NCBI GenBank assembly: GCA_951406725.2
Contig: OX597836.1
Location: forward strand, 13,764,001 to 13,828,000
Direction: 5' to 3'
Source of the DNA: Octopus vulgaris
Taxonomy: Eukaryota
Length of the DNA stretch: 64,000 nt
Part shown: positions 19,432 through 62,316 of the stretch, in pieces
Position numbering within the stretch: the first letter of the stretch is position 1
How the letters are laid out: the number at the start of each line of letters is the position of its first letter
Position numbers and translations under genes: made by a program
Notes under the pieces: generated by a model
Told to the model about the DNA's origin: nothing
What the model saw: the letters and a program-made list of their open reading frames with translations, nothing else
Database searches by the model: none

Positions 19432-20676
19432 CTGAGTAACAAAACAAAAAAACATACACAATAAATATGACAGAAAATGAGGTGATTCATTATGAATAAC
19501 CATCTCCCTCTAGCCGAAATTGCGAGGATGATACGGTTCTTGACTGAAGATTGAAGGCTTTGAATGTCCCGTCCGTGTTTTTTGTATCGTCTTCTAAATG
19601 TTTTGCATTCTTGTCTCAGTTTGTATTTTTTTACATATACATATATATATATATAAATAAGCTATAGTAGAAGACACTATATATATATATATATATAAAT
19701 AAGCTATAGTAGAAGACACTATATATATATATAGTGTCTTCTACTATAGCTTTGAGACAATGAAAGCCTTGTGATCAGATTTGGTAGATGGAAACTGAAG
19801 GAAGCCTGTCACGTGTGTGTGTGTGCATGCGTGTGTGTGTGTGTATGTCCATGTTTGTCCACCCAACTCTGCTTCACAACTGGTGTTGGTGTGTTTGCAT
19901 CCTCATAACTTAATGATTCAGTAAAAGAGATTGACTGAATAAGTACCAGGTTTTAAAAAATAAATCCTGCGGGTCGAGTTGTTCAACTAAAACCCTTCAA
20001 AGTGGTGCCCCAGAATGGCCATGGTCAAATGACAGAAATAAGTAAGAGATAAAAGATACAGTTTACAAGATGTAATCAGTTCATTACCTTCCCAGGTGTT
20101 TTCAATGGCTGATGACCGGTTGATATAACAATGTATAATATGATATAATGAACAGGTGAAATTGGCTCAGTGTTTGCACCTGCTCACATAATATGCACCT
20201 GCTCGTATATTATCAGCCAGTCACCGAGAGCAAAAAATGTCTGTTGAGATGTATCGTGTGAATTGTGTATGTTATTTTTCACATATTCCTTATGCCTGTT
20301 AACATGTCTTTCTATACCCTAGGATTCAAAATGCTGGACCCTAATCCGGTTTCTATGGCATATAAAGGCCTGATATTACAACAGGACACGGTTCTGTCTA
20401 TCCCAGGGTAAACTTACCGGCTATTGTTGGAACTCATTTACCACTGAGTGGACTGGAGTAATGTAAAATGAAGTGTTTTGCTCAAGAACACAACACACTA
20501 CACAGTCTGAGATTCGAAACCACAGTCTTATGATTGTGAAAGCAATACCCTACCCACTTAGGCAAGCGCCTTCATAAGACGTACACTAAGAGGTTGAGAA
20601 ATTTGGTTGCGGAAAGTAAGGCAAAGTTGATCCCAGCAGGATTTGAGATGAAGAAAAGAGAGCAAAGGGAACTTAC

Positions 20677-60385: not shown

Positions 60386-60425
<40 letters not shown>

Positions 60426-60499
60426 AATATAAATGAAGAAAATGCTGACAAAATAATTTAAGTAAGGGAGAGTGTATTTAATTAGGTGAAAGTTCTTTT

Positions 60500-60529
60500 A
60501 AAAATATGGAACGCTTCACGAATTTGCGT
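60500..60529 (-). pseudogene. U6: U6 snRNA 3'-terminal fragment (ACGCAAATTCGTGAAGCGTTCCATATTTTT), left arm of a fold-back
   Basis: Matches the conserved last 30 nt of metazoan U6 including the oligo-U end; the 5' three quarters of U6 and promoter elements are absent. Confidence 0.92.
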
Positions 60530-60554
60530 AATTCGTGAAGCGTTCCATATTTTT
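60530..60554 (+). pseudogene. U6: U6 snRNA 3'-terminal fragment (AATTCGTGAAGCGTTCCATATTTTT), right arm of a fold-back
   Basis: Matches the last 25 nt of U6; head-to-head with the minus-strand copy. Confidence 0.9.
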
Positions 60555-60691
60555 AAAAGAACTTTCACCTAATTAAATACACTCTCCCTTACTTAAATTA
60601 TTTTGTCAGCATTTTCTTCATTTCCTTTTTTTTTTATATATCACAACTCATGTTCCACATCCCCTTTTTTAAATATATATATATATATATT

Positions 60692-61932: not shown

Positions 61933-62008
61933 GTCTTACAGCCGTTTCTGGAATAACCCAAGCGATAGGTTAGCATGTACATGCACTGAGTATTCCATCA
62001 TCAGAGAC
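61933..62008 (-). ncRNA. Minimal type-I hammerhead ribozyme motif with intact core
   Basis: GUCU-CUGAUGA-[UGGAAUA...UAUUCCA]-GAAA-CGGCUG-UA-AGAC: stem I GUCU/AGAC, 7-bp stem II base, short near-palindromic stem III, GUA cleavage triplet. Confidence 0.8.
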
Positions 62009-62240
62009 AAGGTATGAATATTTTAGACAAGGAAAATTTACAGTTTACAAGAAATAAAATTCACAGCTTATAAGGAATAAAATAGAAGAATAAAGGAGTA
62101 AAATAGAAGAATATTGGCAGGAGAATAATGTAGTTCTTCCAACTACTTTTACTCTTTATTCTACTATTTCATTCTTTATAAACTGTGAATTTAATTTCTT
62201 GTAAACTGTAAATTTTCCCTGTCTAAAATATTCATACTTT

Positions 62241-62316
62241 GTCTCTGATGGTGGAATGCCCAATGCATGAACATGCTAACCTACCACTTGGGCTATCCCA
62301 GAAATAGCTGTAAGAC
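62241..62316 (+). ncRNA. Degenerate type-I hammerhead motif (mirror copy)
   Basis: GTCT-CTGATGG-TGGAAT...ATCCCA-GAAA-TAGCTG-TA-AGAC; the core has A9 changed to G, so probably inactive. Confidence 0.65.

Follow-up and report, generated by a model that had tools for sequence, protein, structure and literature searches.

Architecture of the fold-back

How the 3′ end of U6 snRNA came to be joined to an AT-rich tail and to enter the genome as a perfect fold-back is the question raised by a locus in a 64-kb stretch of Octopus vulgaris DNA, referred to here as the window. The exact inverted repeat at 60431-60623 is the sole long complex one in the window and has the mismatch-free 94 bp described in the original prediction, with two 94-nt arms (60431-60524 and 60530-60623; 0 mismatches) on either side of a 5-nt centre. 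The composition of the arms, the terminal 25-30 nt of U6 followed by one and the same 69-nt tail, was likewise borne out. The left U6 piece (60500-60529, minus strand) comprises the last 30 nt and the right piece (60530-60554, plus strand) the last 25 nt, each including five U, and both agree with the 3′ terminus of L002, a U6 gene copy of this genome. The unpaired centre, 60525-60529, consists of the five most upstream nucleotides of the left U6 piece. By Rfam alone, the window U6 piece scores only 15.4 bits (E 4.2); at the gathering score Rfam has no match in the window, and this includes the hammerhead. MicroRNA matches in the window were rejected as hairpin or repeat artefacts.

The U6/Penelope junction on the plus strand lies at 60554/60555, has no added letters and coincides with the predicted hammerhead cleavage position in parent copies of the tail. 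The paired part of the long arm (60555-60623, plus strand) is 69 nt of Penelope sequence as judged from family matches. The short arm carries the identical sequence (60431-60499, minus strand), which comparison of the repeat with parent copies defines as the first 69 nt of the Penelope RNA 3′ of the predicted hammerhead cut, and it ends near the proximal end point of the window's Penelope family. The long arm continues as a one-sided extension of ~50 nt (60624-60673, plus strand), the Penelope "tail" signature also seen in family fold-backs, and runs to the family's distal end point, so that the insert reaches ~60673. The adjoining (TA)n tract that had been pointed out is present on both flanks. 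The left target (60391-60430) is formed by (TA)n at 60391-60422 and 8 AT-rich nt, and family copies likewise end in (TA)n; the right target is the (TA)n tract at 60674-60690. A separate fold-back in the window, built from a SINE fragment (20 bp) around a (TA)n centre, lies at 19659-19752.

A recent event had been proposed. The identity of the two arms agrees with it but the unpaired extension differs from the family copy at several positions; a recent age of the window insert is plausible. Among the Logan contigs listed, none bridges the fold-back centre and none contradicts the fold-back either, and in the contigs aligned to the window the parent hammerhead appears as loose contig ends at 60555. 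The window insert is non-coding and most likely represents an inert by-product, of value as a record of mechanism.

The parent Penelope-like element

Copies of the tail were counted by pattern matching in the 2.8-Gb genome (227 contigs). The 29-nt tail core has 1,114 matches at ≤2 mismatches and the reversed control has 0, which establishes the multicopy nature of the tail that the original prediction had put forward as support; the matches are often arranged as head-to-head pairs. The parent family contains a reverse transcriptase (RT) domain (PF00078, E 6.7e-08, locus L227) and a GIY-YIG domain (PF01541, E 1.4e-06, locus L226), both above cut-off. The ORF pieces with RT and GIY-YIG are located 5′ of both hammerhead and tail. 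In L225 the ORF also starts shortly after a 5′ tail copy, so that the tail would be the 5′ end of the cut element RNA. Every ORF copy seen in the parent family is truncated or interrupted. In the ORF translations a CX4CxxC motif precedes GIY-YIG and fits, by motif alone, the Neptune/Nematis linker, a CX2-5CxxC linker before the endonuclease being a trait of that group (Craig 2021, PMC8557442).

The features of EN+ Penelope-like elements are all found in the tail's parent family, namely an RT with C-terminal GIY-YIG, a terminal-repeat hammerhead, an inverted, 5′-truncated and tailed copy, and an AT-rich target. One long and one short arm are present in 27 of the 28 fold-backs of the window's family. 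On the evidence of its sequence, the window tail is assigned to a Penelope family with RT and GIY-YIG.

A second form of the window's family, in which a spacer of up to ~200 nt separates the hammerhead from the tail, was seen at L035, L045, L058 and L219. This spacer starts with GT, ends with a pyrimidine tract and AG and is intron-like. The common form is not a spliced product of the spacer form and resembles a deletion across A-runs.

The hammerhead of the window's family

Most of the 30 tail loci read carry TTGATAA, a 4-bp stem, GCAA, the palindrome CCGG and TA directly before the tail. This motif corresponds to a minimal type I hammerhead of the U3-A8 variant, with C at position 13 and a GCAA core; the U3-A8 variant is known from Penelope elements (Cervera and de la Pena 2014, PMC4209133). 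The expectation had been that the tail would follow a hammerhead of the form GAAA-stem III-UH. It does start right after UH, but the core is GCAA and is accompanied by the U3-A8 pair. In parent copies the first base of the tail directly follows the predicted cleavage site. Of 26 parent arms, 21 have an A-run of five at this point, and cleavage following TA would leave them with AAAAG, the start of the window's tail. The hammerhead is atypical in its GCAA core, which may already be described, and in having only 2 stem I pairs in its commonest form; as a monomer it has no favoured fold (z -0.49).

Many copies have G at the cleavage nucleotide (L159, L161-L165 and L218, and in a second family, B, for example L233, L250 and L291). 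Such a G would block cutting, and could reflect ordinary transitions or edited RNA copied back to DNA. In runs X1 and X3, which are RNA-like but not on record as RNA, family contigs show the A-runs as G over window positions 60555-60600. The change spans the cleavage site and the tail, as would be expected if double-stranded fold-back RNA had been heavily A-to-I edited.

The window also contains a hammerhead pair of another Penelope-like family, at ~61933-62008 (minus strand, with a canonical core) and 62240-62316 (plus strand, with G at position 9). The likeness between the tail and the sequence after the neighbouring hammerhead at 62313, remarked on in the original prediction, is present as a short match, but that pair belongs to a different family and was rejected as the source of the tail.

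Recurrence of U6 and U6atac joins

The exact window junction occurs at one further locus, L061, where the U6 piece is longer and the tail belongs to a different subvariant. Amplification of a single chimera as a family does not account for these data, as the exact junction is found at 2 loci only and their tail subvariants are unlike. The genome contains 474 U6 3′ ends at ≤1 mismatch; the arms read were the 100 listed of these 474 together with the 30 best Rfam loci. Most of them lead into tails that we take to be of SINE or RTE type. In 8 of the 100 listed arms, corresponding to six events, U6 leads into an AT-rich tail, mostly within a fold-back lying in (TA)n; extrapolated to all 474 ends, this share would amount to some tens of arms in the genome. 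Altogether, ten independent U6/U6atac joins were found in six Penelope-like families, all at the predicted cut base: the window, L061, L171 (U6atac), L019/L104 (counted once for their shared inversion point), L132, L247, L110, L116, L141 and L148. Each has a 5-nt U-tract and no added letters. The U6atac piece of L171 scores 80.6 bits and ends at the base before the tail.

The parents of family B are L090 and others, and family C has a single close parent, L067, with a 1-nt deletion. Families D, E and F have 692, 415 and 92 matches, respectively, and family F deviates at the third base after the site. Families B-F are called Penelope-like by their hammerhead, fold-back and (TA)n layout alone. 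In their parents the U6 junction coincides exactly with the end of a minimal hammerhead, the stem II of which is weak in families D and F by strict count. Among 301,196 background positions, 5 are preceded by a comparable core together with a stem II and a palindromic stem III.

A run of five T is found in 15/15 arms classed as exact joins, a class defined by the first letters after the T-run that left out three arms with a 5-nt tract and one substitution. The comparison class comprises U6 arms with what we take to be SINE or RTE-type tails; it has five T in 18/70 arms (some of them duplicates) and may have arisen differently. In these ~70 arms (e.g. L001, L015, L023, L071-L076) U6 is followed by a SINE 5′ end or the last ~50 nt of an RTE-type element, and both T-runs and linkers are variable. 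Of the 41 "other" U6 arms, none matched any of the retrieved loci of Penelope-like families at a position other than the site. The partner assignment of U6 copies leaves out L149, L128, L094, L086, L113 and L137.

A tandem array of at least 7 U6 gene-like copies with a variant 5′ stem, spaced ~1.1-1.4 kb apart, was observed at L009-L013 (C1:139.42-139.43 Mb).

Other RNAs joined at the predicted cleavage site

Arms with non-parent bases before the site number 213 in two families, 40 in the window's family and 80 + 93 in family B. The pattern used for the 40 arms excluded A at -1 and G at -2 and required four A, while the family B set of 93 was defined by VA, with A at -1 preceded by any base other than T; A-ending partners are accordingly listed in family B only, and TA-ending partners in neither family. 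Most of the 213 arms belong to parents that carry point changes or small deletions, to fold-backs turning at the site, or to copies that begin there beside (TA)n. The identified foreign partners amount to 16, in a count that leaves out L156, L182, L183, L230, L334, L425 and L433. They comprise five U6 events, one U6atac, six 5′ products of other hammerheads that end at their own UC (L154/155, L175, L253, L260, L288 and L303), three ends of one tRNA-like SINE (L177, L264 and L269) and one piece of 18S rRNA (58.1 bits). The partner hammerheads of L288 and L303 have an imperfect palindrome. Cyclic-phosphate ends are known or predicted for 12 of the 16 partners, the other four being the three SINE ends and the 18S piece. 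Neither poly(A) nor tRNA-CCA was found as a partner in the 93 family B arms with A before the site.

Two of the hammerhead pieces come from a ~358-bp tandem repeat that has 374 matches and is non-LTR-retrozyme-like. With its hammerhead product at the Penelope site, both sides of the junction are predicted ribozyme ends. Most copies read of this tandem hammerhead repeat (L186-L213) have a U3-G8 core. At L334, a GC-rich sequence of ~300 nt with no Rfam match occupies family B's site on both arms.

The rare partners are present on both arms in the window, L061, L110, L116, L141, L148, L177, L260, L269 and L334. Furthermore, arm subvariants agree in 30 of 32 fold-backs, against an expected fraction of 0.50. 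From the rare partners and the subvariant agreement together, we infer that both arms derive from one molecule.

A proposed course of cleavage, ligation and insertion

The observations to be explained are the position of the junction, the identity of the tail family, the recurrence of the joins, the list of partners and the layout of one long and one short arm. Hammerhead cleavage in the cell, followed by RtcB-type ligation and then Penelope insertion, provides the best reading of a junction known from genomic DNA, with a probability of roughly 0.7. The placement of the join at a ribozyme-cut end is, by itself, highly probable. The original suggestion that U6 was joined to a self-cleaved Penelope-like RNA is supported by the RT and GIY-YIG domains of the tail family and by the junction at the predicted cut site.

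For the cleavage activity, the end chemistry in Octopus vulgaris, the ligase and the two-site priming, we infer the following course. Self-cleavage of the Penelope RNA would take place in the cell, probably in dimeric form or with the help of the protein, as reported for other Penelope elements. An RtcB-type ligase would then join the 5′-OH end of the Penelope RNA to the cyclic-phosphate end of U6. The Penelope protein would nick (TA)n and prime at two sites, ~70 and ~120 nt downstream of the cut. Copying would pass through the junction and halt 25-30 nt into U6, and the ends would be joined head to head, such that the joined RNA enters its (TA)n target as an inverted pair. Several of these steps have precedents. 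In human cells RtcB joins the U6 cyclic phosphate to 5′-OH RNA, and mature U6 ends in five U, as does U6atac (Moldovan et al. 2019, PMC6789731). Hammerhead-cut retrozyme RNA is circularised by RtcB in vitro (PMC7229834), and two internal priming sites produce the tail of an Anolis Penelope element (Frangieh 2024, PMC11167929). For the same Anolis element, cleavage was dispensable in vitro and no RNA-seq reads ending at the site were reported (PMC11167929).

The closest rival retains the cut but dispenses with the ligase. Having run off the cut 5′ end, the RT would make an end-to-end jump to the 3′ terminus of U6 or of some other RNA, and the second arm would be copied from the first cDNA. We regard this as unlikely, though deserving more weight than the remaining explanations. 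It predicts an identical junction position, end-to-end jumping is known for the R2 RT (cited in PMC4494074), and copies that stop or fold back at the site do exist (L166, L176, L220, L221, L287 and L295). The agreement of subvariants in the fold-back arms is explained equally well by copying of a single cDNA and by two passes over a single RNA; the origin of both arms from one molecule, being compatible with ligation and with a template jump plus copying, thus does not separate the two. Nor can the five U, which are expected from any mature-U6 donor. In the window's family the U6 3′ end pairs with the tail at -10.0 kcal/mol, a value matched in 1/500 shuffles (in the other five families the corresponding pairing is matched in 83-448/500 and is not notable), and this pairing could guide either a template switch or a splint ligation. 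The list of partners, on the other hand, favours ligation: most have known or predicted cyclic-phosphate ends, poly(A) and CCA are missing from the 93 arms, and the junctions have no added letters. Ends with a 3′-phosphate hinder template jumping, and jumps often add letters. In the window and L061 more U6 is present on the short-tailed than on the long-tailed arm, which excludes a simple snap-back but stays compatible with one that then annealed to a second, short cDNA; the two-pass argument is weak, drawing on these two loci only, and other fold-back arms of the family carry internal deletions.

The joins might instead have arisen independently of ribozyme cleavage, at a hot spot of truncation or DNA recombination or by Penelope insertion behind U6 pseudogenes. 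The non-canonical hammerhead of the window's family would be in keeping with this, and A-runs and microhomology do produce other breaks near the site (the microhomology-like joins of L299 and L277, and TGA-CTG deletions). However, six families with unlike sequences after the site join at the same structural position, and each partner hammerhead stops at its own cut base with no sequence in common. Here U6 is internal to the inverted pair and (TA)n external to it, the opposite of what an insertion behind a U6 copy would give. We therefore consider such an origin very improbable. Least credible of all is read-through of a U6 gene, a duplication of the DNA flanking such a gene or a fold-back created in assembly. 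The identical arms and the lack of a bridging contig among those listed would suit an artefact, but the one-sided extension agrees with the family fold-backs and the arms of the sister chimeras L141, L148 and L116 are diverged. The mobilised U6 read-through transcript that had been offered as an alternative is contradicted by the U6 gene-like copies with upstream TATA boxes, the 3′ flanks of which are unrelated to the tail, and by the tail being Penelope sequence.

Cleavage, ligation and insertion thus remain the preferred reading. A more general proposal can be made tentatively, at somewhat less than even odds. Penelope hammerheads would cut in the germline, and their 5′-OH ends would routinely be ligated to nearby cyclic-phosphate RNA such as U6, U6atac and the cut ends of other ribozymes. 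Ligation, normally head-to-tail or circular, would then be part of the Penelope cycle, and joins between families would swap modules among ribozyme-bearing elements. The insertions might accordingly serve as a fossil library of the cell's cyclic-phosphate RNAs and active ribozymes.

Comparison with known systems

The accessible text of PMC8557442 calls the function of minimal hammerheads in animal Penelope elements unclear, and low in vitro activity of these hammerheads is reported (PMC4209133). No in vivo trace of cleavage is given for animal elements in the accessible parts of PMC4209133, PMC8557442 and PMC11167929. Whether these hammerheads cut in cells is the question that the present junctions address. 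Joins at the predicted cut base in six families constitute genomic evidence for cleavage and for insertion of the cut RNA, even with a GCAA core, and they point to ligation between different ribozyme RNAs. They also provide a cheap and repeatable test, which is to see what precedes the predicted cut base in any Penelope-rich genome. No published report of U6 joined to Penelope at a hammerhead cut was found in a search of mostly open-access papers; the main text of PMC11838501, as far as accessible, mentions neither Penelope nor ribozymes.

The elements described in the accessible text of PMC4209133, PMC8557442 and PMC11167929 share with the window's family the RT with C-terminal GIY-YIG, the minimal type I hammerhead with its palindromic stem III and U3-A8 variant, the inverted 5′-truncated copy, the one-sided extension and the AT-rich target. 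The GCAA core is absent from those descriptions. Unlike in the known elements, the half of the hammerhead upstream of the cut is here replaced by host RNA. Non-LTR retrozymes likewise have hammerhead ends that are ligated by RtcB (PMC7229834; bioRxiv 10.64898/2026.07.22.740005), and the ~358-bp repeat is a donor in the present system. In contrast to the retrozyme self-circle, the join described here connects different molecules or families and is fixed in DNA by Penelope. In SINEUs, too, a retroelement sequence is headed by an snRNA piece at its 5′ end (Kojima 2015, PMC4494074), but SINEUs amplify as families, whereas the present joins are one-off events that differ in tails, subvariants and U6 lengths.

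The closest likeness is to the chimeras of U6 with LINE-1 (and of U6atac, L2 and RTE) in the accessible text of Moldovan et al. (PMC6789731), in which the five-U end of mature U6 is placed on a retroelement RNA that is then retrotransposed; the use of U6atac is common to both systems. The direct join of the U6 five-T end to a retroelement is found in the window, but a LINE partner with poly(A) and a target-site duplication is not. The window chimera works like the U6/LINE chimeras and is not a member of that group, as its partner is not a LINE. Those chimeras involve variable L1 positions, whereas here the Penelope partner is joined at one fixed base that the ribozyme would define, without poly(A), as a short inverted pair in (TA)n, and the products of other hammerheads are captured as well. 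The capture of U6 is thereby extended from LINEs to a third class of retroelement, and what is new relative to the U6/L1 chimeras is a junction defined by a predicted ribozyme.
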